In this document: positions 6,377 to 26,134 of the stretch, one piece after another
Layout: every line of letters starts with the position of its first letter
Position numbering within the stretch: position 1 is the stretch's first letter
Assembly (NCBI GenBank): GCA_017451425.1
Contig: JAFSPP010000011.1
Coordinates: 26,510-90,509, forward strand
Origin: Clostridia bacterium
Lineage (GTDB): Bacteria; Bacillota; Clostridia; Oscillospirales; Acutalibacteraceae
Direction: 5' to 3'
DNA length: 64,000 nt
Translations under genes and position numbers: made by a program
The notes under the pieces: model-generated
What the model was told of the DNA's origin: nothing
Databases searched by the model: none
The model's input: only the letters and a program-made list of their open reading frames with translations

Positions 6377-6524
6377 GCAAACGTTTCAGAACGCCCTGAT
6401 CGGCATTCCGTGCCCTGAAAACAGGGCTTTGTGGAATGTTTGCTTACCAAGCATTTCTTGGCAAAGTATTTTTTGCGCGTTTTTTTATTACGCGCGCGCA
6501 TATTTTAAGTAAAGGAGTGGTAAC

Positions 6525-7739: not shown

Positions 7740-7766
7740 TAATAAAGGAGGGAAAGAAAGAGTATT

Positions 7767-8660: not shown

Positions 8661-8678
8661 GAAAGGAGCGTGTGATAT

Positions 8679-9398: not shown

Positions 9399-9415
9399 GA
9401 AAGGGGAGATTTAAA

Positions 9416-10003
9416 ATGACAGAAAAAGATAAGAAAACCTTAATTATTGCTGCTATTGCTCTCCTTATATTCGGTATCGCTTTCCTCGGTATCAGACCCG
9501 CAATAACAAATCTGAAAGAGGAAAGAGCAAAGAACGTAGAGCTTTCAGCACAGAAACAGACAATGCAGACAGAGATTAACTCTCTCCCTACATACAAGAC
9601 AAATCTTGAAACAGCGAAGACGAACTACAATGCAACGGCTTCCCGCGCATTTGCAGATCTTCCGAATGACAAGATTCACGACGTAGTTATTGACGAAATC
9701 GTTACTCCGCTCGGCCTTGATGTAAAAGCATTCCGCATTAACAGCATTGAACCTCTCGGTGTAAACAATTATGTTGTACCTTCAGCTGATGCAGGCGCTT
9801 CACCGGCTCTTGTTGCAGGCACAACAGACCTTGCTTATATTACTGTTGATGTAGTAGGCACACAGGAGCAGATAATTGCGCTTGTTGACAAACTTAATGC
9901 GACAGAGGGCACATACCTCTCAAACATTTCGTTCTCAACGGTTGCAGACAATGCTACGGTATCAGTTCCGTTCTATATGGTTCTTTCGGAGACATTTGAA
10001 TAA
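9416..10003 (+). CDS. PilO-like bitopic pilus assembly protein
   Basis: An N-terminal TM (LIIAAIALLIFGIAFLGI), a coiled-coil (NLKEERAKNVELSAQKQTMQTEINSL), then a C-terminal domain. Synteny is pilM-N-O. Confidence 0.5.
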   Translation: MTEKDKKTLIIAAIALLIFGIAFLGIRPAITNLKEERAKNVELSAQKQTMQTEINSLPTYKTNLETAKTNYNATASRAFADLPNDKIHDVVIDEIVTPLGLDVKAFRINSIEPLGVNNYVVPSADAGASPALVAGTTDLAYITVDVVGTQEQIIALVDKLNATEGTYLSNISFSTVADNATVSVPFYMVLSETFE

Positions 10004-10045
10004 TACGATTCTCTGAAGGATACTCCGATAAAACGAAAAGAGTTT

Positions 10046-10091
10046 GGCACAAGTTCCGGTTTTTTCCGGGGCTTGTGCCCTGTCTTTTTTT
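10046..10091 (+). terminator. Rho-independent terminator ending the pilD..pilO unit
   Basis: GGCACAAG (10046-10053) pairs with CTTGTGCC (10072-10079), with an inner CCGG/CCGG pairing, followed by a T-rich run (TGTCTTTTTTT). Confidence 0.6.
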
Positions 10092-10099
10092 ATAAGTCC

Positions 10100-10158
10100 A
10101 AAAAAAGTTAAAAAAATGTTAAAAAACTATTCACATTTTGATTTCTTTGATATATAAT
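10100..10158 (+). promoter_or_regulatory. Putative promoter with a phased A-tract (UP-like) element for the minor-pilin operon
   Basis: TTCACA (10130-10135), a 17-nt spacer, then TATAAT (10153-10158). Three A6-7 tracts start at 10100, 10110 and 10121, about one helical turn apart. Confidence 0.4.
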
Positions 10159-10269
10159 AGGTTCATAAAGCGTGGTAGTGTATCTACCCGCGGGACGCAC
10201 GAGAATTATTCATAATTGATTTTATGCATAATTTCAAATCCGGCTTCCAAATAAAGGAGGTAAACATTT

Positions 10270-11961
10270 ATGAGAGTATTGGGAAATAAAAAGGGTTCGG
10301 CACTGCTCTGGTGCATACTCCTGATTATTATTCTCACAATTCTTTTGGGTAGTGTACTTACGGCTACTTATGCCTATTACAACTACACCATGCGTACTGT
10401 TAAGAGACAGCAGGCCTATTTTACTGCTCGTTCTGCAGTGTCCATGCTTCTTGAGGAACTCACCTCTGAAGAGCAGGTAGCTACAAACGGCGAATATCTG
10501 GAGTCGTCCATTTCAGTGCTTCCTTCAAGAAAGGGCGCTGATCATGCCGTAACCGTAAGCGATTTCGGTTTCGGTGAAAAGATGGGTTCGGCTGAAGCTA
10601 CTCTTGTACGTAACGATGACGACGAAATTAATATTGAAGTAACGGCATATTATCCCGATAACATAAACGGTGAGAAGTATGTTATGAAGGCTACTGTTTG
10701 CCGCCAGCCGCTTTATTTCGGCGGTATTGCTGTTAAGCATCTTTCGCTTGACGGCAAGCTTACTCTTGGCGAAAACACAGACCTTTACTGGAACAATACG
10801 GATATTTTCAACACAGCCGGTAATGGTTCCTCTTTTAAGAATAATGGCGGCACTCTTTCCGTTAACGGTAACCTCGTTACAAAAGGAGATGCCACAATTA
10901 CGGCCGGTAATGTTGTTGCAGGCAGAAACTTCTATGGAACAGCCACATTCTCCGGTGATTCTCTTCATTCAAAGAAAATCTGGTCTCCGACAGAATATAT
11001 TATTTCTAACAAGACATTAAGAGTTGATGATGCTGAGAACACGGAGTACACGACAAACGCTATTAATACTCTCAAAAATATTACTAACTATACCATTAAA
11101 TATTGTAACAGCAGAGGCACAAGTGCTTTCGGTCCGAATCCCGTGCTTGCAGATATCTTAGGTGTTGATGTCGGCCAGCTTATGTCCGGTATTCCAATCA
11201 TCGGTAACATTATTTCTGATACAAATGATCAGTTTATGAAGGTTTCCGACTCAAATAACAGCGCTTTGTCCATCAGATACATTAAGCTTCTTTCAACATA
11301 CAAAGCAATTTCTGATGCGCTTGATAACGCTCCTTTGGTCCTGCAGCCAATGATTAATATTATTCGCGCCTTACCTACAACGCAGGCGGCAGCCAGTCTT
11401 ATGAGAGATTGCTACGATGCTCCTTGGATTGATTTCTCTTCATCTGATGAAGGCAACAGATCTGATGAGGTCGTACCTCTTACTTATCTCTTTGTTGACA
11501 GCAAACTCGGCGTCCGTGTTCAGTACGGCAGAGATCCGGGCAAAGCCAGTTTTATAGGTCAGATTACTGATAATATTTCTAATAATGTTGGCTCATTTAT
11601 CAACAGCGTTTTTGATATTCGCAATAAGCCCAGTTATCTTGTTGCTTATATGGAACCCAATTCTTATATCGAACTCGGCTATGGTTGCGGCAAGGGACAT
11701 GTTAACCCGAAGACAGGTGTTACAGAAAACAACAGCCGAAACAGAGGCACGCCACAGAACCTTGTTTTCCTTTATTCACTATATGGTGGAGATAACACAA
11801 CGGTTATCCTTCACGACGGCGTAACGGTTATAGGTGAGATTATCTGTGACAATCTTATTATCGAAGGCGATGCCAAGATAATTTACTCATCAATAAACGG
11901 CGGTCAGATAGCTAAACAGAAGATTGCTGAGTATTGGGCCGTATCAAATTATTCGGATTAA
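10270..11961 (+). CDS. PilX_N-domain pilus-associated protein, large (563 aa)
   Basis: The N-terminus KKGSALLWCILLIIILTILLGSVLT...RQQAYFTARSAV matches the PilX N-terminal pattern (GSAL, hydrophobic helix, QAFxAAEAG). It has no Glu+5 or canonical G|F cleavage site. The remainder is Asn/Gly/Thr-rich. Confidence 0.55.
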   Translation: MRVLGNKKGSALLWCILLIIILTILLGSVLTATYAYYNYTMRTVKRQQAYFTARSAVSMLLEELTSEEQVATNGEYLESSISVLPSRKGADHAVTVSDFGFGEKMGSAEATLVRNDDDEINIEVTAYYPDNINGEKYVMKATVCRQPLYFGGIAVKHLSLDGKLTLGENTDLYWNNTDIFNTAGNGSSFKNNGGTLSVNGNLVTKGDATITAGNVVAGRNFYGTATFSGDSLHSKKIWSPTEYIISNKTLRVDDAENTEYTTNAINTLKNITNYTIKYCNSRGTSAFGPNPVLADILGVDVGQLMSGIPIIGNIISDTNDQFMKVSDSNNSALSIRYIKLLSTYKAISDALDNAPLVLQPMINIIRALPTTQAAASLMRDCYDAPWIDFSSSDEGNRSDEVVPLTYLFVDSKLGVRVQYGRDPGKASFIGQITDNISNNVGSFINSVFDIRNKPSYLVAYMEPNSYIELGYGCGKGHVNPKTGVTENNSRNRGTPQNLVFLYSLYGGDNTTVILHDGVTVIGEIICDNLIIEGDAKIIYSSINGGQIAKQKIAEYWAVSNYSD

Positions 11962-11973
11962 GGGGGCTGCTTT

Positions 11974-12381
11974 ATGAAGAAACTTGATAATAAAGGTTTG
12001 ACTCTTGTTGAGCTTATACTCGCAGCAGTTATCCTTGCAATTTCCGGACTTATGCTTGCCACGACTTTCACATCTGCAATGAGAATTATGAGTCGTGCAA
12101 TACTTTACAAGAACGTCAGTGCAACAGCTGCAGAGACAGTTGAACTTGCCGAGGAACAGGAACCGGTCGAAAACTTTGTTTACGATGTTGACAGTTCCGA
12201 AAAGAACGGCACATTGACTATCACTTACAAGAAAGACAATGTTGATAGTACAACGACAATGAGCGGTCAGTACTATTTTGCAGAGGTCTCAAAAGATGAC
12301 GAGAGGGTCGGCCTGACTTACAAGGAGTTCCTTCCGAGTAACTTCAGTTACGACATTCCTGCGGCCCCTGTAGGGGATTAA
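11974..12381 (+). CDS. Minor type IV pilin / pseudopilin
   Basis: The N-terminus MKKLDNKG|LTLVELILAAVILAISGLMLA is a prepilin cleavage/methylation motif with Glu+5. Confidence 0.75.
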   Translation: MKKLDNKGLTLVELILAAVILAISGLMLATTFTSAMRIMSRAILYKNVSATAAETVELAEEQEPVENFVYDVDSSEKNGTLTITYKKDNVDSTTTMSGQYYFAEVSKDDERVGLTYKEFLPSNFSYDIPAAPVGD

Positions 12382-12405
12382 GTATACAGAAAGGACGAGT
12401 GACTT

Positions 12406-14928
12406 ATGAATATTTTTGAAATAAGAAAAAATAAACTCGGTATGACACTTGTGGAAATGGTTCTTTCCCTTGTAATCCTCGGTATACTTATGACTTCTAC
12501 TATGGGTATGGTAATATCGAGTAATCAGATTTTCATTTCAACAAGTAAAGCCGCAATTGACAAGCAGGTTGGTAACTACTCTTTCGATTTCATCGAAAAG
12601 GTTCTCCGTTACACAACACACATGTCAATCTACAATGAGGGCACTTCACCCAATGATTCCAATCTTCAGTCTCTCTCATTGAATAAGACTGATAATACCA
12701 ATGATTCCGGCATACTTATGTTTAAGCGCGCTGAGGATAACGATCCTTACTCTCTTTACGATAATGGTTTCTACGGCAATAGAACAATCCAGTATTCTGT
12801 TCATAAGGTCGGTAAAAAGAGCCAGCACGTAAAACTTAAAGTAACTGTCTTCAGAGAGGGCAGAGCGGTTTATTCGAGAGAATCCGTTGTCAAGTGCTTG
12901 AACCTTAACCTTGTTGCAATAGGTGACGGTGCAAATCCGATTGTTGATAAGTCATCTGCCGATGCAGTAAACCAGACAATCACATTCTCCGTTGATGAAA
13001 AGCTTCTTTCCGGCGGTAAGAATGCTTACTCACTTGAGTTCAAGGTTTCCGAGTTCATGGGTAAGTACAACAAGATTCAGAAAGCTTATGTTGCCGATAT
13101 AGGTAAGGCTTATACAAAGTATATCAGCGGTAACTATGATGCTGAGGAAAACCCCGGTATCCGCGGTACAACTGATGCTTACAACGGCAGAATTGAAGCC
13201 GAGACATACGCAGCCAGAATGAATGCCTATACAAAGATTGTATTCGGCGACGGAGCGACACCTACAAACTATGATCCCGATCGTATTGAAAACTGTGTAA
13301 ACCTTCGTGCTTACTATCAGCAGGAAATCAATGATCTCCTTAAATTTGATCTTAAATCTTCAAATGCCGCAGGTTTTACCAATGGTAACTTTACCAACAA
13401 TATTATCGGTACAACATCTTATAAGCTTCATAATGGTGATGCCTTCTACGGCGTAGTTGCGACCAAGGAAGAGATGTACTTTGGTTTCATGCTCAACCAT
13501 TATGACAAGAATAACGACGGCACTATTTCAAAGGCTGAATATCCTCAGTTTGAGGGCGACTCCTTCTTCAAGGGCACATCCATGGATTCTTATTTAAAGA
13601 ATACCAGCGGCAACCAGATGGTTATCATGTGCTACTTCAAGGACAATGTTGCCAATGATAACTACAAGGGCCTTGTAGCAAAGACAACCCAGGATGTTTA
13701 CTCCTTCAACGGATCTGTTTCGCACTCTGCTGCAGCGAATGGATCAGCAACTAAACCCGGAGCATCAACAATCCAAGATTACAGCGGAAATAACAGTGAT
13801 GTACCTTCCGGTACAAGTTATCTTAATACCTCCAAGGTATATATCTACTATTCAGATAACAATTACAGAGCCGGTGGCACAAATCTCAACTATGACCGTT
13901 CTGGTAATATTATTTCCGGATACACATATCCCGGCACGGCAATTGAAAATTATCTCAAGAATACACTCGGTGCAAAGAATGCTACTCCTTCTTTTAATGT
14001 AGCATCACATATTTCAGGTTCGGATCATAACGATACTAAGAATTGCTCTTATACCGCACCGACCGACCTTACAGAAGGCTGGTATTATTCCAAGGTTCCG
14101 TATTACAGTGCAGGTGCTGCTAATACTAAATATTGTTTCTGTCTCTTCTATCTCCAGGCTATTGATCAGACAGAAGAGGCTGACGGCCAGGAAATAGTAC
14201 TGAATCCGAATAAAATTGCCATCTTCAGAGGCGGTAAAATTAATTACTCGTTTGCCAACAGCTCGGGTGTATTAGAAACTATTTACTATAAACTGGGTTC
14301 ATTCACTTATGACCAGGCGCAGTTTACAGTAAGCCACGAAGCACAGGGCGGCAACACCACTTCCACTGACTTCCTTGAGTACACAGCACACCAGTATGTT
14401 GACTATGCACTCTACGGAACAGACTGGAACTCCTGGTTCAATGCGAACCCTTCAGGTCTTATTAACCAGCTTGCGAATGTTGTTACGAATTTCGTTAACA
14501 CAATTCGTGGTAAGGCCATAAATAAGAACATAACCAGCATAAGTACGGCAAATGCAGTTCAGTCGCTTGGTAACATCGGACAGCACAACATTTCTACTGC
14601 GATGGACAATCAGGCTGCATCTTATAACCTTGCTTGGTGTGTTTACAGCCCGAAGCGCGGCACATGGTACTATCTGCCCGCCAGATCAACAAGACTTTCA
14701 GGTCTTGCTTCTTCCTTCTCGTTCTCATCAAAGAAGGACGCACCGACACCGCTTGATGCTGACCTTGATGACGGTTCCTGGAGATCCTCCAGCGCAATGG
14801 TAAGTGATATCGAGATGCGTAAACTGTCAAGCAGCGGTCTCTTTGGACTTGTTGATACGACCTCTGATGTACTTTGGGTAGCACTTCCTACAGGTAACAC
14901 AATCGATCTTGATTCCGTTACCGGTTAA
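12406..14928 (+). CDS. Giant modular pilin-like protein (840 aa), candidate tip protein or adhesin
   Basis: The N-terminus ...RKNKLG|MTLVEMVLSLVILGILM has a prepilin-type signal with Glu+5, followed by about 800 aa of Asn/Ser/Thr/Tyr-rich extracellular sequence. This includes a canonical EF-hand-like loop DKNNDGTISKAE at nt 13504-13539. Confidence 0.7.
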   Translation: MNIFEIRKNKLGMTLVEMVLSLVILGILMTSTMGMVISSNQIFISTSKAAIDKQVGNYSFDFIEKVLRYTTHMSIYNEGTSPNDSNLQSLSLNKTDNTNDSGILMFKRAEDNDPYSLYDNGFYGNRTIQYSVHKVGKKSQHVKLKVTVFREGRAVYSRESVVKCLNLNLVAIGDGANPIVDKSSADAVNQTITFSVDEKLLSGGKNAYSLEFKVSEFMGKYNKIQKAYVADIGKAYTKYISGNYDAEENPGIRGTTDAYNGRIEAETYAARMNAYTKIVFGDGATPTNYDPDRIENCVNLRAYYQQEINDLLKFDLKSSNAAGFTNGNFTNNIIGTTSYKLHNGDAFYGVVATKEEMYFGFMLNHYDKNNDGTISKAEYPQFEGDSFFKGTSMDSYLKNTSGNQMVIMCYFKDNVANDNYKGLVAKTTQDVYSFNGSVSHSAAANGSATKPGASTIQDYSGNNSDVPSGTSYLNTSKVYIYYSDNNYRAGGTNLNYDRSGNIISGYTYPGTAIENYLKNTLGAKNATPSFNVASHISGSDHNDTKNCSYTAPTDLTEGWYYSKVPYYSAGAANTKYCFCLFYLQAIDQTEEADGQEIVLNPNKIAIFRGGKINYSFANSSGVLETIYYKLGSFTYDQAQFTVSHEAQGGNTTSTDFLEYTAHQYVDYALYGTDWNSWFNANPSGLINQLANVVTNFVNTIRGKAINKNITSISTANAVQSLGNIGQHNISTAMDNQAASYNLAWCVYSPKRGTWYYLPARSTRLSGLASSFSFSSKKDAPTPLDADLDDGSWRSSSAMVSDIEMRKLSSSGLFGLVDTTSDVLWVALPTGNTIDLDSVTG

Positions 14929-14964
14929 TTGCAGATTTCTGCAAATCCAATAAAACGAATAGCA

Positions 14965-14996
14965 GGGGCGGGCTTTTGTCCGCCTCTGTTTCTTTT
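14965..14996 (+). terminator. Probable Rho-independent terminator after the minor-pilin operon
   Basis: GGGGCGGGC (14965-14973) pairs with GTCCGCCTC (14978-14986) with two G-U pairs and a TTTT loop, followed by TGTTTCTTTT. Confidence 0.5.
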
Positions 14997-15084
14997 GTGG
15001 TTTGACAAATAGGTATTATGTAATAAAATAATTGTATACAAAATGGTTATAATCTTTGAAAGTTTTGCAAGGAGGTGAGCAGGG

Positions 15085-15831
15085 ATGAAGCTTAATTATG
15101 CAGGCAGAAGAGCGTTTGAAGTGTTTACGTTTATTCTGGACTGGATTCTTATTCTGGCCCTGCTCGTCAGCCTTTATAATATATTTATGCGTAAAGTGCG
15201 CCATGAACCTCTGCCAATGCTTTTCGGCAGGGGATATGCGGTAACGGTTTCGGGTTCCATGGAGCCGACAATTGCCATAGGCGACATTGTGTGGATTAAA
15301 CAGCAGCCTAAGTATGATGTGGGCGATATTATCGTGTTTGTGGATAAGGATTCGCCTAATCAGTCTCTGGTAACGCACAGGATTGTCGGTGTTACGGAGG
15401 AGGGCTATATCACCAAGGGCGATAATAACAATACGGCGGATTCCGGTGTTGTGGAGCCACATTACATTAAGGGTGCTGCGACGCATCTTATTCATTACTT
15501 CGGAGCTACGTTGCTGTTCATTCAAAAGCCGATTGGCATGTTCCTGATGCTGCTTTTAGCATTGCTGCTTATTGAGCTTCCGTACCGTATCAGGACGAGG
15601 TACAGGGAAGAGACCATGGCAGCGCTTGATAACATGGTCCACAGGGTCGAAATACAGGGCAAAGAGGTTATTGCGCCTGATCGTACCCTTGAGTTCAATG
15701 ACGGTTCTTATAGGGCGCCACAGAAGACGAAGAGGCAGATTGACTTCGAGCGCGAACTCGACTGGAGGCGCCGCAAGAAGCAGAAGCGGAAGATATTTGT
15801 GCCTGATGAGGGTCACTGGGATATTGACTAG
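15085..15831 (+). CDS. Signal peptidase I, SipW/archaeal-eukaryal (S26B) type, with a long charged C-terminal tail
   Basis: Has the catalytic Ser context VSGSMEPTIAIGDIVWIK, the segments THRIVGV and GYITKGDNN, and a second TM. About 85 extra C-terminal residues are rich in R/K/E (RRRKKQKRK). Confidence 0.75.
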   Translation: MKLNYAGRRAFEVFTFILDWILILALLVSLYNIFMRKVRHEPLPMLFGRGYAVTVSGSMEPTIAIGDIVWIKQQPKYDVGDIIVFVDKDSPNQSLVTHRIVGVTEEGYITKGDNNNTADSGVVEPHYIKGAATHLIHYFGATLLFIQKPIGMFLMLLLALLLIELPYRIRTRYREETMAALDNMVHRVEIQGKEVIAPDRTLEFNDGSYRAPQKTKRQIDFERELDWRRRKKQKRKIFVPDEGHWDID

Positions 15832-15874
15832 TTTTTGCTTTGGTTATTTTTAGAAAGTTGACTTGAATTTTTTG

Positions 15875-15903
15875 TTGACTTTGTCGGTTTATGGTGTTAA
15901 AAT
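15875..15903 (+). promoter_or_regulatory. Sigma-A promoter of the T-box operon
   Basis: TTGACT (15875-15880), a 17-nt spacer, then TAAAAT (15898-15903). A second copy of GTTGACTT lies 17 nt upstream (15857-15864). Confidence 0.55.
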
Positions 15904-15909
15904 TTTGGC

Positions 15910-16187
15910 ATAATAAATAAAGGCGATGACGAAGACGGTTTTGAGGACCTCTTTCAGAGAGCAGACGGTTGGTGCGAGTCTGCAGTGGGAATCAAGTTGA
16001 CCTATCACTTCAGCAGCTGAGCCCTTGAACACATTTGTTAGTAGGGGACTACGTGAAAGCTACGTCAGTGCGAAGGGGTTGATGGACCCTGAGGGGTAAC
16101 GGGCAATAGCCAATCGTTACAATTTGAGTGGTACCGCGGGTAACTTGTTTTATTCGTCTCAAAGCATTTGCTTTGAGGCGTTTTTTT
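15910..16187 (+). promoter_or_regulatory. T-box riboswitch leader (tRNA-sensing transcription attenuator), probable Ile (AUC) specifier
   Basis: GA/K-turn GCGAUGA (15923-15929). AG bulge AGAGAG (15956-15961). Distal loop GGUUGGUGCGA (15967-15977). Specifier context CCU-AUC-A-CUUC (codon at 16004-16006), closed by GAAG at 15931-15934. T-box sequence AAUUUGAGUGGUACCGCGGG (16121-16140). Terminator CGTCTCAAAGCA/TGCTTTGAGGCG plus T7 (16155-16187). The terminator's 5' arm CTCAAA can pair instead with the T-box TTTGAG. Confidence 0.85.
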
Positions 16188-16258
16188 ATTCCCCTCATCT
16201 GCCCCTTTGGGGCACCTTCTCCCCCGGGAGAAGGCATAACAGGAAAGGAATGGTTGTT

Positions 16259-18517
16259 ATGGAAACTAAACAGGAAATCGTTGAGGTAGTGCAGAGAATC
16301 AAGGAGATGAGAGATATCTCCGGCTTTTCTGTCGCTGACATGGCTGAGAAGACCGAACTTACCGAGGAACAGTACCTTGAGTATGAATCCGGTAAGGTGG
16401 ATCTGCCGTTTACGTTCGTGCATAAGTGTGCGCTGGCGTTCGGTATCGGTATTGCTGACTTGCTTGAAGGCCAGTCGGCAAGGCTTTCTTCATACACCGT
16501 GACGAGAAGGAACGGTGGCCTTGTAACGGCAAAAGAGGACGGCATTACCATTCAGAACCTGGCTTCAATGTTCAAGGACAGACTTGCCGACCCGTATTTC
16601 TGTATTTACGAGTATGACGAGTCCCTTCAGGACAAGCCCATAAAGCTTGTTGAGCATGCGGGCCATGAGTTCAACTTCGTTATTAAGGGATCACTGAAGG
16701 TTCAGGTCGGTGACCATGTCGAGACCCTTCACTCAGGTGACTCCATTTACTTTAAATCCTCAATACCTCACGGCGAGCTGGCGGTAGACGGCGCGCCCTG
16801 TAAATTCCTTTCCATAATTTTAAACTCCGACGTTACGGAGGAGCTGTACAAAGAACAGGCTATCCGCCGTGCGGCTCAGTCTGAAAAGCTCGTTGTTGAG
16901 AAGTTTGTTGAGTGCACTGAAGATGAGGAAGGCGCTCTTGTTGACATTAAGTTCCATGACGAGGATAAATTCAACTTCGCTTTCGACGTTGTCGATGAAA
17001 TCGCGAAGAACAAGCCCGAAAAGGTGGCTATGATTCACCTTGATAAGGACAAGAATGAGACTAAGTTCACCTTCAGGGATATGAAGGACCTGTCAAACCA
17101 GGCTGCGAACTACTTTACATCGCTCGGTATCCGCAAGGGCGACCGCGTAATGCTGGTATTAAAGCGCAGATATGAGTTCTGGGTTTCAATTCTTGCACTG
17201 CATAAAATAGGGGCAATTGCGATTCCTGCGACACACCTTCTGAAGGACCATGACTTTGAGTATAGGTTCAATGCTGCAGAAGTTAAGGCGATTATCTGCA
17301 CATGTGATGATGATACGCCTTCATCGGTTGATCGTGCTTGTGCGTCTTGTCCTTCGGTTGAGACGAAGATTATTGTGGGAGCTTCACGCTCGGGCTGGCA
17401 CGATTTTGATGCAGAGTTTAAGCTGTTCAGCCGCAGATATCTGCGTACGGCTGAGTCGCCCTGCGGTGATGATCCCATGCTTATGCTCTTCTCTTCGGGA
17501 ACATCGGGTTATCCGAAGATGGTACTTCATTCCTGCAAGTATCCTCTGGGACACTTCCATACCGCGAAGTACTGGCATTGTGTAAGAAACAACGGTGTAC
17601 ACCTTACAATTTCAGATACCGGCTGGGGCAAGGCTCTCTGGGGCAAGCTTTATGGCCAGTGGATGTATGAGGGTGCAGTATTCGTATATGACTTTGAGAG
17701 ATTCCATGCAGCAGACATTCTGCCGCTGTTTGCGCAGTATAAGATAACTACATTCTGCGCACCTCCGACCATGTACCGTATGCTTATCAAGGAGAACCTG
17801 ATGAACTACGATCTGTCCTCAATCGAGCATGCTACGGTTGCCGGTGAGGCACTGAACCCTGAGGTCTTCTATCAGTTCAAGAGGGCGACAGGTCTTGAAC
17901 TTATGGAGGGCTTCGGTCAGACCGAGACTACGCTTACGGTCGCGAACCTTGTCGGTATGACGCCGAAGCCGGGTTCAATGGGCAAACCCTGCCCGCTTTA
18001 CGACGTTGTTTTGCTTGATCCTTCGGGCAAAGAGGTCGGCGTAGGCGAAAACGGCGAAATCTGCGTGAAGACAAAGAACGGAGCACCCTGCGGACTCTTC
18101 CTCGGATACTACAAGGACGAGGAGGCCACAAAGGCCGCATGGCATAACGGTTACTACCATACAGGTGATATTGCCTGGAAGGATGAGGATGGATACTTCT
18201 GGTACGTCTCACGTGTTGACGATGTCATCAAGTCATCCGGTTACCGCATCGGCCCGTTCGAGATTGAAAACGTTATCATGGAGCTTCCTTATGTTCTTGA
18301 GTGCGGCGTAACTGCCGCTCCTGATGAGGTAAGGGGACAGGTAGTCAAGGCGTGTATCGTTCTGGTTCCCGGAACCGAAGGCACTGACGAACTGAAGAAG
18401 GAAATTCAGAATTACGTCAAGAAAAACACCGCTCCTTACAAATATCCGCGAATTGTCGAGTTCAGAACTGAACTTCCTAAAACTATTAGTGGAAAAATCA
18501 TAAGAAAAGAATTATAA
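16259..18517 (+). CDS. Fusion protein: XRE-type HTH + cupin domain + AMP-forming medium/branched-chain acyl-CoA synthetase (ACSM/MACS-like)
   Basis: Start chosen at ATG 16259, 9 nt after GGAAAGGA; the ORF-track start at 16124 lies inside the T-box. HTH: FSVADMAEKTELTEEQYLEYESGK. Cupin: HAGHEFNFVIKGSLKVQVGDHVETLHSGDSIYFKSSIPHG. Adenylate-forming motifs: FSSGTSGYPKMV, YHTGDIAWKDEDGYFWYVSRVDDVIKSSGYRIGPFEIE and ISGKIIRKEL. It is one uninterrupted frame. Confidence 0.8.
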   Translation: METKQEIVEVVQRIKEMRDISGFSVADMAEKTELTEEQYLEYESGKVDLPFTFVHKCALAFGIGIADLLEGQSARLSSYTVTRRNGGLVTAKEDGITIQNLASMFKDRLADPYFCIYEYDESLQDKPIKLVEHAGHEFNFVIKGSLKVQVGDHVETLHSGDSIYFKSSIPHGELAVDGAPCKFLSIILNSDVTEELYKEQAIRRAAQSEKLVVEKFVECTEDEEGALVDIKFHDEDKFNFAFDVVDEIAKNKPEKVAMIHLDKDKNETKFTFRDMKDLSNQAANYFTSLGIRKGDRVMLVLKRRYEFWVSILALHKIGAIAIPATHLLKDHDFEYRFNAAEVKAIICTCDDDTPSSVDRACASCPSVETKIIVGASRSGWHDFDAEFKLFSRRYLRTAESPCGDDPMLMLFSSGTSGYPKMVLHSCKYPLGHFHTAKYWHCVRNNGVHLTISDTGWGKALWGKLYGQWMYEGAVFVYDFERFHAADILPLFAQYKITTFCAPPTMYRMLIKENLMNYDLSSIEHATVAGEALNPEVFYQFKRATGLELMEGFGQTETTLTVANLVGMTPKPGSMGKPCPLYDVVLLDPSGKEVGVGENGEICVKTKNGAPCGLFLGYYKDEEATKAAWHNGYYHTGDIAWKDEDGYFWYVSRVDDVIKSSGYRIGPFEIENVIMELPYVLECGVTAAPDEVRGQVVKACIVLVPGTEGTDELKKEIQNYVKKNTAPYKYPRIVEFRTELPKTISGKIIRKEL

Positions 18518-18600: not shown

Positions 18601-19281
18601 TTGTTTATGAGTAATTCTGTTAAACGAGTGACCTTGTTTGCCGGGCATTACGGCAGCGGAAAGACGAATTGTGCGATAAATTATGCTTTGCACCTGCGTT
18701 CTTCGGGGCTGCCTGTTGCCATTGCGGACCTGGATGTTGTAAACCCGTATTTCCGTACTGTGGACAGTATGGCTGAACTTGTTTCGGCAGGTATCAGGGT
18801 TGTGGCGTCTGATTACGCGGCTTCCAATGTCGATTTCCCTGCATTGCCGGGTGAGATGTATTCTCTGTTTGAAGACAAATCGTCTTACGCGGTAATTGAT
18901 CTGGGCGGAGACGACAGGGGAGCGCTGGCTCTGGGAAGGTACAGGGATCTGATACTTGAGGAGAATGATTTTAATAATTTCCTGGTGATTAACAAGTATC
19001 GTCCGCTGACTGCCACTCCTGCACTCTGTATGGAGGTCATGGAGGAGATTTCCTCCGCAGCGGGAATTCCGTTTACCGGAATAGTAAATAACTCTAATCT
19101 GGGCGCTGAGACGACCTGGGAGGACATTGAAAAGAGCATTCCTTATGCGAAAGCCGTGTCTTCCATGTCGGGACTGCCTATAGTGATGACGACTTATATG
19201 GATTCACTAACCGTTTTAGGTGCCCTTGATATACCCTTGTTCGGGTTATCGCTTCAGAAAAAAGTCTTCGAGGAGGATTGA
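18601..19281 (+). CDS. P-loop NTPase (MinD/ParA/CooC-like superfamily), function unknown
   Basis: Walker A AGHYGSGKTN near the N-terminus, and a DLGGD Walker-B-like segment. 226 aa. TTG or ATG (18607) start. It sits between the synthetase and the oxidoreductase genes. Confidence 0.45.
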   Translation: MFMSNSVKRVTLFAGHYGSGKTNCAINYALHLRSSGLPVAIADLDVVNPYFRTVDSMAELVSAGIRVVASDYAASNVDFPALPGEMYSLFEDKSSYAVIDLGGDDRGALALGRYRDLILEENDFNNFLVINKYRPLTATPALCMEVMEEISSAAGIPFTGIVNNSNLGAETTWEDIEKSIPYAKAVSSMSGLPIVMTTYMDSLTVLGALDIPLFGLSLQKKVFEED

Positions 19282-19284
19282 GAT

Positions 19285-19491
19285 ATGGGAAAAGTCAGCT
19301 TTAAGACGGATGTCTGCAAAGGCTGCGGCCTCTGTGTGGCCGCCTGTCCCAAGAACATTCTTGTATTGGATGAAAATAAACTTAACGCGAAGGGCCATCA
19401 TCCCGCGACCTGCGTGGATATGGACGCCTGTGTGGGCTGCGCTTCATGCGCAATTATGTGCCCTGACTGCGTTATTACGGTAGAGAGGTGA
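19285..19491 (+). CDS. 2-oxoacid:ferredoxin oxidoreductase delta subunit (2x[4Fe-4S] ferredoxin)
   Basis: 68 aa with two CxxCxxCxxxCP motifs (CKGCGLCVAACP and CVGCASCAIMCP). Confidence 0.8.
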   Translation: MGKVSFKTDVCKGCGLCVAACPKNILVLDENKLNAKGHHPATCVDMDACVGCASCAIMCPDCVITVER

Positions 19492-19498
19492 GTGTGCA

Positions 19499-20560
19499 AT
19501 GGGCGAAAAAGTATTGATGAAAGGTAACGAGGCAATTGCCGAGGCCGCTATTCGCGCAGGCTGCAGACATTACTTCGGATACCCGATTACACCTCAGACT
19601 GAGGTCGCGGCATATATGTCTAAAAGAATGCCGAAAATAGGGGGAACTTTCCTCCAGGCCGAGTCCGAAATCGCCGCCATCAACATGGTTATAGGCGTTG
19701 CGGCAACCGGCAAGAGAGTAATGACATCCTCATCTTCACCGGGAATATCCTTAAAGCAGGAGGGTATCTCATACCTTGCCGGCTGCGATCTTCCCGCACT
19801 GGTTGTAAATGTTGAGCGCGGCGGCCCCGGACTCGGCGGCATCCAGCCCTCACAGTCAGACTACTGGCAGGCCACAAAGGCCGGCGGCCACGGTGACTAC
19901 CACAATATCGTTTTAGCTCCCGCGTCTGTTCAGGAGATGGCTGCCCTTACAATCAAGGGCTTTGAGCTTGCTGACAAGTACAGCATGGTCACCATGATCC
20001 TTGCCGACGGCACAATGGGCCAGATGATGGAACCCGTTGAGATTGACGATATTGAGATAAAGACAGTTGAAAAGCCTTGGGCTCTTACCGGTACCGGTAT
20101 GGCTCGCTCGCACAACATTGTTAATTCACTTTATCTGAAGCCTGACCTTCTTGAGCAGAAGAATTTTGAAAGATATGAGAAATATGCGCAGATAGAGAAA
20201 TCTGAGGTCATGTATGAGGAATACATGATGGATGATGCCGATATCTGCCTTGTAGCTTTCGGTATTACCGCACGTGTTGCGAAGAATGCCATAGCTGAGG
20301 CTCGTGCCAAGGGCATTAAGGTAGGACTTCTTCGTCCGATTACCCTGTGGCCGTTCCCGTCACAGGCTCTGGCAGCACGCGCTTCGCAGTGCAAGGCTTT
20401 CATTTCGGTCGAGATGAATATGGGACAGATGATTGATGATGTTAAACTTGCAATTTCATGTTCACGTCCCGTTTACCTCTGCAACCGTGTAGGCGGTATG
20501 ATCCCGTCACCGGAAGAGGTACTCGACAAGATTATTTCTGTTTCGGGAGGTGCTGATTGA
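19499..20560 (+). CDS. 2-oxoacid:ferredoxin oxidoreductase alpha subunit (VorB/KorA type)
   Basis: 353 aa. The N-terminus LMKGNEAIAEAAIRAGCRHYFGYPITPQTE is the classic POR/VOR/KOR alpha-subunit opening. Confidence 0.85.
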   Translation: MGEKVLMKGNEAIAEAAIRAGCRHYFGYPITPQTEVAAYMSKRMPKIGGTFLQAESEIAAINMVIGVAATGKRVMTSSSSPGISLKQEGISYLAGCDLPALVVNVERGGPGLGGIQPSQSDYWQATKAGGHGDYHNIVLAPASVQEMAALTIKGFELADKYSMVTMILADGTMGQMMEPVEIDDIEIKTVEKPWALTGTGMARSHNIVNSLYLKPDLLEQKNFERYEKYAQIEKSEVMYEEYMMDDADICLVAFGITARVAKNAIAEARAKGIKVGLLRPITLWPFPSQALAARASQCKAFISVEMNMGQMIDDVKLAISCSRPVYLCNRVGGMIPSPEEVLDKIISVSGGAD

Positions 20561-21315
20561 TGGCAGTCGTATTTGATAAACCGCATGCTCTGACAGATGC
20601 CACAATGCACTACTGCCCGGGCTGTACACACGGTATAATTCACAGACTCATAGCCGAGGTTATTGATGAGCTCGGTATTGAGGGCGATACCATAGGTGTA
20701 GCATCCGTCGGATGCTCCGTTATGGCTTATGACTACTTTAATGTGGACTTCGTCCAGGCGGCTCACGGCAGGGCTCCGGCCGTTGCCACGGGCGTCAAGA
20801 GGTCGGATCCGTCTAAAGTAGTATTCACTTACCAGGGAGACGGAGACCTTGCCGCCATAGGCACGGCTGAGACCGTTCATTCCGCCGCGCGCCGTGAGAA
20901 TATCACCGTCATCTTCGTAAATAACGCTATTTACGGTATGACAGGCGGTCAGATGGCGCCGACAACCCTTCCGGGTATGGTTACGCAGACTTCTCCTTAC
21001 GGCCGAAATGTTGAGGCCGTAGGCTATCCCGTAAAGGTCTGCGAAATGCTTTCTGAGATTGACGGCGCCGCTTATCTTGAGCGTGTAGCGGTCAACAATG
21101 TCGCAAATGTCAGAAAGGCAAAGGCGGCTATTAAAAAGGCTTTTGAGTATCAGCTTTCCGGTAAGGGCTTCTCACTTGTTGAGATTGTTTCAACCTGCCC
21201 GACAAACTGGGGCGTTTCACCTGAGAAGGCGCTGTCATTTGTTGATACGGATATGATTCCTTACTATCCTCTCGGAGTTTACAAGGATATCTATGCAGAG
21301 GAGGATGCAGGATGA
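20557..21315 (+). CDS. 2-oxoacid:ferredoxin oxidoreductase beta subunit (TPP-binding)
   Basis: CPGCTHGI near the N-terminus and the TPP motif GDGDLAAIG...NNAIYGMTGGQ. Its start overlaps the alpha-subunit stop. Confidence 0.85.
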   Translation: MMAVVFDKPHALTDATMHYCPGCTHGIIHRLIAEVIDELGIEGDTIGVASVGCSVMAYDYFNVDFVQAAHGRAPAVATGVKRSDPSKVVFTYQGDGDLAAIGTAETVHSAARRENITVIFVNNAIYGMTGGQMAPTTLPGMVTQTSPYGRNVEAVGYPVKVCEMLSEIDGAAYLERVAVNNVANVRKAKAAIKKAFEYQLSGKGFSLVEIVSTCPTNWGVSPEKALSFVDTDMIPYYPLGVYKDIYAEEDAG

Positions 21316-21842
21316 GTACTTTGAATATTCTCTTCGCAGGCTTCGGCGGACAGGGCATACTGTTCTCCGGCAAATTCATGGCCTATGAGGGTCTTCTTGC
21401 GGACAAGCACGTCTCATGGCTCCCGTCCTACGGACCGGAGATGAGAGGCGGTACCGCAAACTGTTCCGTTATCATCTCTGATGAGGAGGTCGGTTCACCG
21501 ATTGTCGACAAGCCCGATGTGCTTGTTGTCATGAACCTCCCGTCACTTGATAAATACGAGGACGCAGTAGTCCCCGGCGGCAAGATCTTTGTCGACTGCT
21601 CTCTCATCGAGCGCAAGGTTGAGCGTACGGATGTATCTGTTTACTATGTACCCGCTACGGGCCTTGCTTCGGAGAAGAAGATTCCGACACTTGCCAACAT
21701 GATCATTACCGGAAAGATGCTGAAGGAACTCGGTTTCTCGCTTGATTCGGTTGACGCAGTACTCGGCAAGATCGTCTCTACACGTCACCAGGATCTCCTT
21801 TCGGTAAACAAGGACGCGATTCGCGCAGGTTATGAACTTTAA
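21312..21842 (+). CDS. 2-oxoacid:ferredoxin oxidoreductase gamma subunit
   Basis: 176 aa. [19 protein letters not shown]...[20 protein letters not shown] is the conserved gamma-subunit signature. It overlaps the beta-subunit stop. Confidence 0.85.
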
Positions 21843-21856
21843 TTGGGGGTTTTAAT

Positions 21857-22924
21857 ATGCTTGATATCAGAATTGAGAAAACTACATCACCCAAGGCTAA
21901 GCCGGCTGATGAGTCCAAACTCGGTTTCGGTCAGATCTTCTCTGACCACATGTTCATCATGGACTATTCCGAGGGTAAATGGCACGATGCCAGAATCGTA
22001 CCTTTCCAGAATCTTTCCTACAGCCCCGGAACAGCTGTTTTCCACTATGGATGTGAGATATTTGAAGGTCTTAAGGCTTACCGCACCGCACAGGGCAATG
22101 TACAGCTTTTCAGACCCATTGAGAACGTACGCAGAATGAACAATTCCGCTGAGCGTCTCTGCCTTCCTCAGATGGATGAGTCAGACATGCTTCAGGCTAT
22201 TGTTGAGTTCGTAAAGGTTGAGAAGGACTGGGTTCCTCACACCGAGGGCACATCTTTATACCTTCGTCCGTTCCTCCTCGGCGTTGACGAGACACTGGGC
22301 GTTCACACAATCCAGAAGGCACAGTTTATTATCATCGCTTCTCCTTCGGGCAGCTACTATCCCGAGGGTATCAACCCCGTCAAGATTATGATTGAGACCG
22401 AGGACGTCCGTGCTGTCCGCGGCGGTACAGGCTATGCCAAGTGCGGCGGTAACTACGCGGCTTCCACGAGAGCAGGCCACAAGGCTGAGCTCCAGGGTTA
22501 CTCACAGGTACTCTGGCTCGATGGTGTTGAGCAGAAGTATATTGAGGAAGTAGGCGCCATGAACGTAATGTTCAAGATTGACGGCACTGTCGTCACTCCC
22601 AAACTCCTCGGTTCCGTTCTTCCCGGTATCACGAGAAAGTCATGCATTGAGCTTCTCAGGGACAAGGGCATTCCGGTTGAGGAGAGAAAAATCTCCGCTG
22701 ACGAACTCTTTGACGCCCTTCGCGCAGGCAAGCTCGAAGAGGCCTGGGGCACAGGTACGGCAGCTGTTGTATCTCCCATAGGCGAGCTCTCATACAAGGG
22801 CGAGAAGTACACCGTAAATGATTTCAAAATCGGTGACACAACACAGTGGCTCTACGATACTCTTACGGGTATGCAGTGGGGCAAGATAGAGGACAACAAG
22901 GGCTGGATTGTACCCGTTGATTAA
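21857..22924 (+). CDS. ilvE: Branched-chain amino acid aminotransferase (fold type IV, long form)
   Basis: 355 aa. Contains FGQIFSDHMF, EGLKAYR, RPENNxxRM-like IENVRRMNNSAERL, YLRPF, GGTGYAKCGGNYAAS and EEVGAMNVMF. Confidence 0.9.
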   Translation: MLDIRIEKTTSPKAKPADESKLGFGQIFSDHMFIMDYSEGKWHDARIVPFQNLSYSPGTAVFHYGCEIFEGLKAYRTAQGNVQLFRPIENVRRMNNSAERLCLPQMDESDMLQAIVEFVKVEKDWVPHTEGTSLYLRPFLLGVDETLGVHTIQKAQFIIIASPSGSYYPEGINPVKIMIETEDVRAVRGGTGYAKCGGNYAASTRAGHKAELQGYSQVLWLDGVEQKYIEEVGAMNVMFKIDGTVVTPKLLGSVLPGITRKSCIELLRDKGIPVEERKISADELFDALRAGKLEEAWGTGTAAVVSPIGELSYKGEKYTVNDFKIGDTTQWLYDTLTGMQWGKIEDNKGWIVPVD

Positions 22925-23003: not shown

Positions 23004-23010
23004 ATTAGTG

Positions 23011-23120
23011 TACTTTGTAACTGACGGATCAGTGGGGTTTACCACATGGGAGCAAAGTAAAGTAATATGTCGACCGTCTGGGCAGTCCCTCAGTACACGA
23101 GGGACTGCCTTGTTTATTTT
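23011..23120 (+). promoter_or_regulatory. ZTP (pfl-motif) riboswitch with an intrinsic-terminator expression platform
   Basis: P1 is ACTTTG/CAAAGT. Conserved ACUGACGG, P2 GUGG/CCAC and GGGAGC are present. After a linker comes CGACCGUCUGGGCA. The pseudoknot GACGG:CCGUC covaries relative to the consensus GGCGG:CCGCC. The terminator GGCAGTCCCTC/GAGGGACTGCC (23081-23109) plus a T-run shares GGCA with the aptamer's 3' end. Confidence 0.8.
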
Positions 23121-23658: not shown

Positions 23659-25083
23659 ATGGGTGGATTTTTCGGAGCTGTATCTTCATCGGACGTACTG
23701 CTCGATGTATTTTTCGGTACAGACTATCACTCACATCTCGGCACACGCCGCGGCGGACTCGCGGCTTATGACCCCGGAAAGGGCCTTCAGCGCGAGATTC
23801 ACAATATTGAAAACTCTCCCTTCAGAACGAAGTTTGAAGATATCTTCGACGAGATGAAGGGTTCATCATGCATAGGCTGTATCAGCGACTATGACCCTCA
23901 GCCTCTGCTTATGCGCTCAAAGTTCGGCGCTTACGCTATCTGTATGGTCGGTGTCGTAAACAACAAGGACGCCTTAATCAAGCAGTATCTTGAGACCACG
24001 GGTGGACACTTCGGCGCCATGACGGGCGGTCTTGTAAACACGACTGAACTCGTGGCTGCCATCATAAACCTTCAGGACGACTTTATCTCGGGTATAAAAC
24101 TGGCTCAGGACATCATCGACGGCACAGCCTCAATCCTGATCCTCAAAGAGGGCGGGGAACTCATCGCCGCCCGCGACAAGTTCGGCAGACTTCCCGTACT
24201 TCTCGGCAAAAAGGATACCGGCTATGCCGTCTCATTTGAGTCTTTCGCCTTTGAGAAGGTCGGCTATGAGTCCTGCTATGAACTCGGCCCCGGAGAGATA
24301 GTCTCCGTGACAACTTCGGGTTATAAGGTTGAGCGTCCTGCATTGCCAAAGATGCGTATCTGCTCATTCCTCTGGTCATACTATGGCTATCCGAACTCCG
24401 TATATGAGGGAGTCAATGTTGAAATCATGCGTTACTTAAACGGCAAACGCATGGCTGAGAACGACATGGAGAACGGTGAACTGCCGGCTGTGGACTTTGT
24501 CTGCGGCGTGCCGGACTCGGGCACGCCGCACGCAATAGGCTATTCGCATAAGAGCGGCATTAACTTCGCGCGTGCATTTATCAAGTACACTCCGACCTGG
24601 CCGCGCAGCTTCATGCCGCAGAACCAGGATCAGCGCGACATAGTCGCGAAGATGAAGCAGATTCCGGTAAAGGAACTCATCAAGGGCAAGAACCTCATGT
24701 TTGTCGATGACTCTATAGTCCGCGGCACGCAGATGAGAGAGACGGTCGAGTTCCTCTACGAGAACGGTGCATCTTCGGTTCACATGCGCTCTGCGTGTCC
24801 GCCGATAATGTACGGCTGCAAATACTTAAACTTCTCACGGTCCACTTCCGAGATGGAACTTATAACAAGAAACACAATCATGGAGATTGAAGGTGAAGAG
24901 GGCTTCAAGCACCTTGCCGAGTATTCAGACGGTAATACCGAGCGCGGAAAGAAGATGCGCGAGGCCATCTGCTCAAAGCTTCATCTCTCATCACTGCAAT
25001 TCCAGACCTTGGATGGTCTTGTCGAATCAATAGGTATCCCTCGCGAAAATCTCTGCACTTACTGCTGGACAGGGGAGGAATAA
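23659..25083 (+). CDS. Amidophosphoribosyltransferase-like protein with a degenerate N-terminal glutaminase domain
   Basis: The PRTase half is intact: PRPP loop [14 protein letters not shown] and Fe-S ligand contexts RICSF, ACPP...YGC and CTYCWTGE. The N-terminus is MGGFFG rather than MCG(I/V)(F/V)G, and I cannot find the Ntn-glutaminase motifs (LQHRGQ, HxRYST, HNGN). A strong RBS (GGAGGA) fixes the start. Confidence 0.75.
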
Positions 25084-25084
25084 T

Positions 25085-26134
25085 ATGGAAAACTCAAGAT
25101 CTGACGCATACGCCTCCGCAGGCGTTGATATTACGGCCGGCTACAAGGCTGTTGAGCTTATGAAGGCACATGTCGCCAAGACAATGACTTCCGGCGCAAT
25201 CGGTGCCATAGGCGGCTTCGGCGGCCTCTTCGAGCTTAATATGACCGGTATAACGAAACCGGTACTCGTTTCAGGCACCGATGGCGTGGGAACAAAGCTT
25301 AAGATAGCTTTCCTCATGGACAAGCACGACACGGTCGGCATTGACTGCGTCGCCATGTGTGTAAACGACATAATCTGCTGCGGCGCGAAGCCCCTTCTTT
25401 TCCTGGACTACATCGCCTGTGGCAAGAATATTCCCGAACGCATAGCTTCAATAGTCTCCGGTGTTGCAGAGGGCTGCGTACAGTCCGGAGCCGCGCTTGT
25501 AGGCGGTGAGACCGCTGAAATGCCCGGCTTTTATCCTGAGGACGAGTACGACCTTGCCGGTTTCTCGGTAGGCTTGGTTGATAAGTCAAAGATTCTTGAC
25601 AACACAAAGATGGAAGAGGGCGATGTAATCATCGCGCTTCCCTCATCGGGCGTTCATTCAAACGGTTTCTCGCTTGTGCGCAAGGTGTTCGACATTGAGA
25701 ATATCTCTGCCGCTGACCTTCGGGCTCCTCTGGATGCCCTTGACGGCAAGTCTCTGGGCGAGACGCTTCTGAAACCCACAAAGATTTACGTAAAACCCAT
25801 GCTCGCACTCTTCGATGCCGTTACGGTCAAGGCTGTTTCGCATATCACCGGCGGCGGATTTTATGAGAACATACCGCGCAGCATTCCGGACGGATTCTGC
25901 GCCTCAATCAAAAAGTCCTCAGTCCGCGTCCTGCCGATATTCAGACTTTTGCAGGAGCGCGGAGGAATTCCTGAGCATGACATGTTCAACACATATAATA
26001 TGGGCGTCGGTATGACCGCTGTTGTCTCCGCCGCCGATGCCGACAAGGCACTGTCGGTACTTCACTCTTTCGGCGAGGACGCCTATGTCCTCGGTACGAT
26101 AGTTAAAGGTTCTGAGAAGATAGTTCTGGAGTGA
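25085..26134 (+). CDS. purM: Phosphoribosylformylglycinamidine cyclo-ligase (AIR synthetase)
   Basis: [44 protein letters not shown] and [11 protein letters not shown]. Confidence 0.9.

Follow-up and report, generated by a model that had tools for sequence, protein, structure and literature searches.

Acyl-CoA synthetases of the ANL superfamily include enzymes for branched short-chain acids: Macs of Methanosarcina acetivorans accepts 2-methylbutyrate (PMC10455477), and MbcS of Staphylococcus aureus activates branched short acids (PMC10026030). XRE-cupin proteins, such as Escherichia coli PuuR and Pseudomonas aeruginosa ErfA, PsdR and PauR, are transcription factors that combine a helix-turn-helix (HTH) domain with a cupin domain. 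In a 64,000-nt stretch of DNA from a Clostridia bacterium of the family Acutalibacteraceae (contig JAFSPP010000011.1, positions 26,510–90,509 of the forward strand; the whole stretch is referred to as the window, and coordinates are counted from its first nucleotide), both types of protein are encoded by a single gene. This gene (16259–18517, plus strand) specifies a 752-aa polypeptide composed of an XRE-type HTH, a cupin and a Macs-type branched short-chain acyl-CoA synthetase. The fusion is natural and conserved, and the open reading frame (ORF) joins the two genes of a widespread module, in which a protein of about 184 aa with the XRE-HTH/cupin architecture is paired with a Macs-type synthetase. 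XRE-cupin regulators, ANL enzymes, T-boxes and enzyme–repressor fusions are all already known; in the searchable literature, we found no description of this fusion or of an obligate HTH-cupin/synthetase pairing, and a paper on Treponema denticola TrtA proved to be a false lead.

The synthetase part of the window protein carries the same motifs as Macs, which also has the same Gly in D-x-G-W-G-K. The window protein differs from both in its N-terminal module, which is left uncovered by the matches to Macs (PDB 3ETC) and to the MbcS model, beginning at query residues 226 and 242, respectively; judging from the operon, its product would also feed amino-acid synthesis and not lipid synthesis. With the XRE-cupin factors, the module shares the two-domain architecture, the size and the H..G.E...PH motif. 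Its gene likewise adjoins a metabolic gene, the split form placing the HTH-cupin directly 5' of the enzyme gene. Unlike these factors, however, the window module is fused to the enzyme, its acidic HTH is devoid of the S-Q and basic contacts, and no palindromic operator was found in the promoters compared below.

The non-haem-iron enzymes of phosphonate metabolism HppE, Psf4, HEPD and MPnS share the 2-His-1-Glu positions and a similar acidic 'recognition' helix with the module, but the identity is only about 20%, and the window module has no phosphonate context, occurs in anaerobic hosts and is tied to an ANL enzyme. BirA, PutA and NadR also carry a DNA-binding-type fold and an enzyme on one polypeptide, and in BirA the acyl-adenylate is the corepressor. 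P. aeruginosa FadD1 is an acyl-CoA ligase that has been reported to act, noncanonically, as a transcription regulator (PMC12754631). The DNA-binding folds of the enzyme–repressors are different ones (winged HTH, ribbon-helix-helix). For the window protein, sequence proxies argue against DNA binding. In the synthesis of branched-chain amino acids, the feedback-regulated first enzymes (the ACT subunits of acetohydroxyacid synthase, threonine deaminase and the regulatory domain of LeuA) provide a functional analogy only: a small ligand module is located on or beside the committing enzyme, and the pathway is subject to tRNA-dependent attenuation, but the fold is unrelated, and end-product binding by the window cupin is hypothetical.

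The fusion gene and its two-gene counterpart

The frame 16259–18517 is open over 752 codons followed by a stop. This uninterrupted frame had been noted in the preliminary description of the window, made from the letters alone, and the architecture proposed there was confirmed as well: the XRE-HTH and cupin occupy residues ~1–190 (Pfam, alignments, AlphaFold2 (AF2) modeling and Foldseek), and the synthetase contains the full set of core motifs (translation and 3ETC alignment). All four Pfam domains scored above their cut-offs, namely HTH_19 at residues 12–71 (33.8 bits versus 30.2), Cupin_2 at 133–186 (45.2 versus 27.2), AMP-binding at 246–618 (220.3 versus 29.9) and AMP-binding_C at 668–746 (74.5 versus 24.5). 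The XRE-type HTH domain (aa 8–72; 16280–16474, plus strand), supported by HTH_19 and the AF2 model, is acidic, with LTEEQYLEYESG as its helix 3. The cupin barrel (aa 113–190; 16595–16828, plus strand) has H133, E137 and H171 as invariant residues in the alignments, and the cupin pattern described earlier was found in the translation as the string HAGHEFNFVIKGSLKVQVGDHVETLHSGDSIYFKSSIPHG. The AMP-forming ANL part (aa 241–752; 16979–18514, plus strand), matched by 3ETC, carries the motifs A3 FSSGTSGYPK, A5 GFGQTET, A7 YHTGD, A8 RVDDVIKSSGYRIGPFEIE and A10 PKTISGK, the catalytic Lys included. An alternative in-frame ATG is located at 16250, three codons 5' of 16259; the spacing of the ribosome-binding site AGGAAAGGA favors 16259. 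A longer TTG-started ORF from 16124 was rejected as the gene, since it would cross the T-box terminator (16155–16180).

The fusion is shared by more than 120 protein clusters of 66–86% identity, which agree in length and in all four domains and are named by their sources, where at all, only 'AMP-binding protein' or 'acetyl-CoA synthetase'. In a scan of one genome per species, matches to the query patterns were confirmed for at least 597 stretches; each of the best 80 loci, which were analyzed further, encodes an essentially full-length fusion. These 80 loci come from Lachnospiraceae, Acutalibacteraceae, Oscillospiraceae, Ruminococcus and the isolate Erysipelotrichaceae bacterium NK3D112; according to the sources of the loci, the carriers are gut and rumen Clostridia. 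A linker region of about 50 residues is kept in all of these fusions. In 121 of 129 full-length fusion genes, a T-box sequence is present 80–370 nt 5' of the ATG.

To recover the stand-alone form, exhaustive HMMER searching was required, as a word-indexed search with the N-terminal 195 residues returned truncated fusion copies only. The exhaustive search with residues 1–200 identified 2227 relatives, including other fusions of ~760 aa (39–46% identity) and many stand-alone proteins of ~184 aa (30–43%). Both forms show the same helix-3 pattern and the invariant residues H133, G135, E137, G160, D161 and H171. A profile search at E <= 1e-10 extended the stand-alone homologs to at least 7729; they are named XRE family regulator or cupin protein and originate from Clostridia, Bacteroidota, Deltaproteobacteria and Armatimonadia. 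Outside both forms, one protein (P0355, 401 aa) carries the HTH-cupin module C-terminal to a P-loop half that resembles cytidylate kinase by eye only; it would represent a further enzyme fused to the module.

The genomic context of the stand-alone genes is uniform. A Macs-type ANL gene (~550 aa) lies next downstream on the same strand in all three individual look-ups and in 69 of the 71 metagenome loci with room downstream; the encoded partners are 45–60% identical to the window ANL, and the median gap from stop to ATG in these split pairs is 19 nt. The pairwise divergence of the partners is correlated (r = 0.85), with the HTH-cupin evolving somewhat faster (mean identity 55% versus 65% for the ANL partner). 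None of 74 stand-alone genes had a T-box upstream, and genes for 2-oxoisovalerate-type 2-oxoacid:ferredoxin oxidoreductase (Vor) or branched-chain amino acid aminotransferase (BCAT) were found near the split pair in only four loci. One split-pair locus (L083, with the pair at 6001–6615 and 6633–8291) also contains, at 8371–12615, a second ANL gene and, on the opposite strand, a gene for a SIR2-family deacylase, which is noteworthy in that lysine acylation is a common means of control of ANL enzymes.

Synthetase substrate and the Ile- and Val-type paralogs

Across its whole length, the ANL part aligns with Macs (3ETC) at 53% identity (E 1.3e-194). The best NCBIfam model is S. aureus MbcS (NF047394), with 445.9 bits versus an equivalog cut-off of 850; the synthetase is a relative of MbcS, not an equivalog. 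GWGK and GFGQTET occur in both the window protein and Macs, the former within DTGWGK, which contains Gly457, and within DSGWGK of 3ETC, which has Gly likewise. Gly553 is found at the position where acetyl-CoA synthetase (Acs) has Trp. In Acs, the position of residue 457 belongs to the acyl pocket; with Gly at both sites, the pocket of the window synthetase would be enlarged.

Many of the 80 loci contain two fused genes in tandem, and 47 such pairs were compared, with the identities between the two copies taken within one locus. In the tandem loci (L011–L079; for example L014, 6983–9247 and 9656–11947), each copy has its own promoter and T-box, Ile then Val. The Ile-type copy, the ortholog of the window gene, is preceded by a leader with the specifier ATC-N-CTTC, and the Val-type copy by GTA-G-CTTC or GTC in the same register; the window carries the Ile-type copy only. 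Among the few ANL residues that discriminate between the copies is the acyl-pocket residue 457, which is Gly in the Ile type, as in Macs, and Ala in the Val type. The difference amounts to one extra methyl group in the pocket, which fits C5 2-methylbutyrate versus C4 isobutyrate and thus provides independent support for the substrates. Together, the Ile T-box, this Gly/Ala difference between the paralogs and the context of Vor and BCAT genes suggest 2-methylbutyrate as the probable substrate of the window synthetase.

Following the duplication, divergence was far greater in the N-terminal module than in the ANL part. The ANL part is 74% identical between the Ile and Val copies, compared with 74–76% among orthologs of one type; the corresponding values are 48% and 60–67% for the HTH, 47% and 68–72% for the linker before the barrel, and 56% and 69% for the cupin. 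Discriminating residues per site follow a similar trend, with 0.125–0.15 in the linker before the barrel, 0.03–0.11 in the HTH and 0.002–0.03 in the ANL N-terminal domain; they include H55Y and K56R (helix 4), L68I and L69I (helix 5), and E93A, I96M, I98Y, K108R and Y113L. This N-terminal divergence suggests that the module recognizes something that differs between the two pathways, which may be a ligand, the surface of a partner or the interface within its own dimer.

The NK3D112 locus (L020, 9598–11886) contains a second fused paralog with a divergent T-box, GGTGGTACCACG, whose specifier region follows neither the Ile nor the Val pattern. In Lachnospiraceae, the operons end in a third ANL gene (~550 aa, 48–50% identical) without an HTH-cupin (L001, 8296–9954; L002, 12772–14496; L003, 14422–16062), which is a possible activator of another acid, e.g., isovalerate for Leu.

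Possible roles of the N-terminal module

We give about an even chance, the pathway assignment included, to the N-terminal module being a control or partner domain that senses a ligand and acts on the synthetase. The module would act on the attached synthetase, or in the split form on the co-translated one, probably as a dimerizing, effector-binding domain through which the committing, ATP-consuming step is controlled rapidly and in a pathway-specific manner. Repression of the classical kind at the operon's own promoter is unlikely; there, transcription control would come from the T-box. The divergence of the module between the paralogs fits recognition of a pathway-specific ligand or interface. 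The preliminary idea of a second, metabolite-sensing layer atop the T-box is a reasonable one. More tentatively, and with somewhat less than an even chance, we suggest that the acidic XRE-HTH/cupin subfamily as a whole comprises obligate regulatory subunits or domains of Macs-type synthetases and not transcription factors, which would make it a so far unrecognized means of enzyme control derived from a repressor fold, and that in the gut and rumen fusions the modules of the paralogs sense metabolites of the Ile or Val route.

Like a 'Rosetta stone', the fusion ties a very large, unstudied family annotated as XRE family regulators (at least 7729 clusters) to a specific enzyme partner. Should the module act on the enzyme and not on DNA, annotations as transcriptional regulators would be misleading in thousands of cases, and acyl-CoA synthetases would have a new mode of control beside lysine acetylation. 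The regulatory-subunit reading, if true, would imply end-product-type feedback on the ATP-consuming entry step, alongside the T-box.

Several observations weigh against a role on the enzyme. By sequence and fold, the module belongs to the XRE-cupin family, whose characterized members (PuuR and the Pseudomonas set of PMC7901475) bind DNA and locally repress neighboring genes, and a regulator gene followed by its target gene is the layout of the split pair. The fold of the HTH is well preserved and was predicted with confidence. Few of the paralog-discriminating residues fall inside the cupin barrel, and the effector of the module is putative only. The full-length AF2 model (predicted local distance difference test (pLDDT) 79.6) is uninformative on contacts between the module and the synthetase. 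Finally, the charge and contact-residue arguments given below are proxies and no substitute for measurement, and operators that are lineage-specific, as helix 3 varies, could escape a conservation test or may sit at other genes.

The strongest competing explanation, which we regard as possible yet doubtful, is an enzyme–repressor of the BirA/PutA kind, in which the HTH binds an operator of its own operon or of other branched-chain amino acid genes, and the cupin, the acyl-adenylate or the acyl-CoA sets the affinity. It would constitute a new BirA-like enzyme–repressor working with a riboswitch-like leader. HTH_19 and Cupin_2 matches above the Pfam cut-offs, the whole-length but weak similarity of the module to PuuR, the Foldseek match to the Vibrio cholerae HTH_3 regulator 1Y9Q (2e-13) and the position of the stand-alone homologs directly 5' of the synthetase are consistent with this explanation. 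In addition, Pseudomonas XRE-cupin proteins repress adjacent genes as dimers on palindromes (PMC7901475).

The promoter regions argue against such a mechanism. Within 15750–16300, a single promoter-like site is present, a sigma-A type promoter (15875–15903, plus strand) with the -35 element TTGACT at 15875–15880, a 17-nt spacer with an extended TG and the -10 element TAAAAT at 15898–15903. The layout TTGACA-17-TGnTAtAAT was found in 97 of 110 related leaders and also in close relatives. A candidate binding site had been proposed in the duplicated GTTGACTT; the two copies do occur, at 15857 and 15874, but as a conserved operator the pair was rejected. The downstream copy (15874–15881) contains the -35 hexamer of the sole promoter. 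The upstream copy (15857–15864, plus strand) is specific to the window and is absent in three loci (L168, L170 and L171) whose proteins are 85–86% identical and which keep the -35, the -10 and the leader. Only one TTGAC is present in 94 of the 110 related promoters, and the octamer occurs three times in the window versus 2.2 expected by chance.

Position-wise information content was calculated for the 97 promoters with a 17-nt spacer (61 Ile-type, 36 Val-type), aligned on the -35. No conserved operator or palindrome was detected in the fused-gene promoters (n = 110) beyond the -35, the TG-extended -10 and an A-rich upstream region. An imperfect A/T palindrome over the -10 (15888–15917) was discarded as a site, being unconserved in relatives. 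Upstream of 77 stand-alone genes, no shared motif was found; k-mer enrichment revealed only A/T-rich words and TAATATTG, the latter presumably a Bacteroidota -7 promoter motif. Fused-gene promoters are near-consensus, one per gene, and the genes are already gated by their own T-box.

The HTH itself points in the same direction. Its net charge (residues 8–72) is negative in all 206 members analyzed (128 fused, 78 stand-alone), ranging from -1 to -11, and averages -5.9 (Ile type), -5.8 (Val type) and -4.3 (stand-alone proteins); the value for E. coli PuuR is +2. The S-Q-R-R of PuuR at the start of helix 2 is replaced in the family by S/T, V/P/A, E/A and E/T/Q, and helix 3 opens with E/V, E and E/Q, away from the usual XRE contact residues, so that the usual phosphate and base contacts are missing. 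The exposed helix-3 positions 36, 40 and 41 vary among orthologs, and the buried Y39, Y42 and E43 are fixed. On these sequence features, and with no conserved operator in the 110 and 77 regions, specific DNA binding by the HTH appears doubtful, and with it the earlier suggestion that the protein autoregulates its operon through DNA.

A structural or oligomerization appendage without sensing, or a docking domain that places the synthetase by the oxidoreductase, is improbable. HTH helices 4 and 5 and the linker contain the most pronounced paralog-specific changes, as expected if two co-expressed dimers have to be insulated from each other, and the correlated divergence of the partners would also fit. 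Yet the metal/ligand residues of the cupin are invariant across a family spanning several phyla, and the split pairs lack Vor genes in all but four of the loci examined.

Slightly less probable still is a second catalytic domain, i.e., a metal-dependent cupin enzyme like HppE, HEPD or MPnS that acts on the acid, the adenylate, the CoA ester or the 2-oxoacid. The AF2 model of residues 1–200 (pLDDT 90; 89–98 for residues 11–70) comprises five helices and a barrel, and HppE and Psf4 were its top Foldseek matches (6e-14), with 1Y9Q equally good. The family profile, too, has HppE as its best full-length match in the PDB (E 1.5e-11, positions 9–183); H133, E137 and H171, which do not vary among fused and stand-alone members, are aligned with the metal ligands of HppE (HaGnE...PH), and its helical domain has the same T-x-E-x-hydrophobic-x-x-aromatic-E-x-G helix. 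However, the H..E..PH residues are also found in the DNA-binding repressor PuuR, the module is only ~20% identical to HppE, the hosts are strict anaerobes, the operons have no phosphonate or oxygenase context, and the three-step pathway of activation, reductive carboxylation and transamination needs no further chemistry. Given the tie between HppE and 1Y9Q and the presence of the triad in PuuR, neither fold nor triad distinguishes an enzyme from a regulator. In HppE, the helical domain contributes to the active site of a neighboring subunit and is not known to bind DNA; by analogy, the likeness to HppE indicates that an HTH-cupin need not be DNA-binding. An epimerase role in the stereochemistry of 2-methylbutyrate was rejected, as the Val-type paralog, with an achiral substrate, keeps the module.

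An assembly or sequencing artefact joining adjacent genes has a negligible probability: split versions with a ~19-nt gap do exist, but the check on relatives recovered the same full-length architecture from more than 120 independent clusters and from the best 80 of at least 597 stretches, from many studies, with the linker in all.

The T-box leader, the operon and its surroundings

The promoter is followed by a T-box leader (15917–16164, plus strand; Rfam RF00230, 91.2 bits, E 1.6e-20), which narrowly missed the gathering score of 93. The specifier AUC (Ile) is located at 16004–16006 and the T-box sequence TTTGAGTGGTACCGCG at 16123–16138; an intrinsic terminator (16155–16190, plus strand) with an 11-bp stem and a T run follows, also delimited as 16155–16180. 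With match, specifier, T-box sequence and terminator all present, the T-box recognized in the preliminary description is borne out. Codon, one base and CTTC stem make up a specifier register that is common to the listed Ile-type leaders and invariant in close relatives.

The fusion gene is the first gene of an operon whose downstream members lie tightly spaced on the same strand. Next to it is a gene for a MinD/NUBPL-like P-loop NTPase (18601–19281, plus strand), located between the synthetase and VorD, with weak Pfam matches to CbiA and ParA(NUBPL). A 2-oxoisovalerate-type 2-oxoacid:ferredoxin oxidoreductase follows (19285–21842, plus strand; Pfam POR_N, PFOR_II, TPP_enzyme_C and POR), encoded by delta (19285–19491), alpha (19499–20560), beta (20557–21315) and gamma (21312–21842) subunit genes, all on the plus strand; the NCBIfam VorB model was passed with 542 bits versus a cut-off of 399. 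The last gene encodes a branched-chain amino acid aminotransferase (class IV, IlvE type II; 21857–22924, plus strand; NCBIfam NF009897, 461 bits versus a cut-off of 307). The order fusion, P-loop, VorD, VorA, VorB, VorC, BCAT recurs in most loci reaching far enough. The P-loop gene (~220 aa) is present in nearly all such loci (e.g., L001, 3268–3927; L168, 5295–5951). Its product fits no curated family well, the ortholog in L001 passing the CbiA cut-off (35.3 bits), and may serve as a maturation or iron–sulfur delivery factor for the oxidoreductase.

The Ile T-box, Vor and aminotransferase agree with the tRNA-sensing route from branched-chain acid to branched-chain amino acid proposed earlier. 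As predicted from the protein and RNA families, uncharged tRNA-Ile would let transcription read through the leader, the synthetase would convert 2-methylbutyrate to 2-methylbutyryl-CoA, the oxidoreductase would reductively carboxylate the latter to 3-methyl-2-oxopentanoate, and the aminotransferase would yield isoleucine. A need for branched-chain volatile fatty acids is long established in cellulolytic Clostridia of the rumen and gut. The locus represents a complete gene set for that need, with a dedicated acid activator per amino acid behind its own T-box, Vor and an aminotransferase. In the tandem loci, it is the Val-type leader alone that precedes the Vor and BCAT genes, and limitation for Ile by itself would not be expected to induce them.

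Upstream of the operon (12406–15831), the window encodes a protein of 840 aa that carries a type IV pilin-like methylation motif at its N-terminus and, next to it, one of 248 aa that is weakly similar to signal peptidases S24/S26. The same pair is located 5' of the operon in L170, and L168 has a gene for a 254-aa protein there. Directly after the BCAT gene, a ZMP/ZTP riboswitch (23007–23090; 61.2 bits, above the gathering score) opens the next unit, which contains purine-synthesis-like genes encoding a glutamine amidotransferase-like protein (23659–25083) and an AIR-synthase-related protein (25085–26134). A distant ANL-like sequence, 29% identical to the C-terminal half of the synthetase, is present at 49308–50117.

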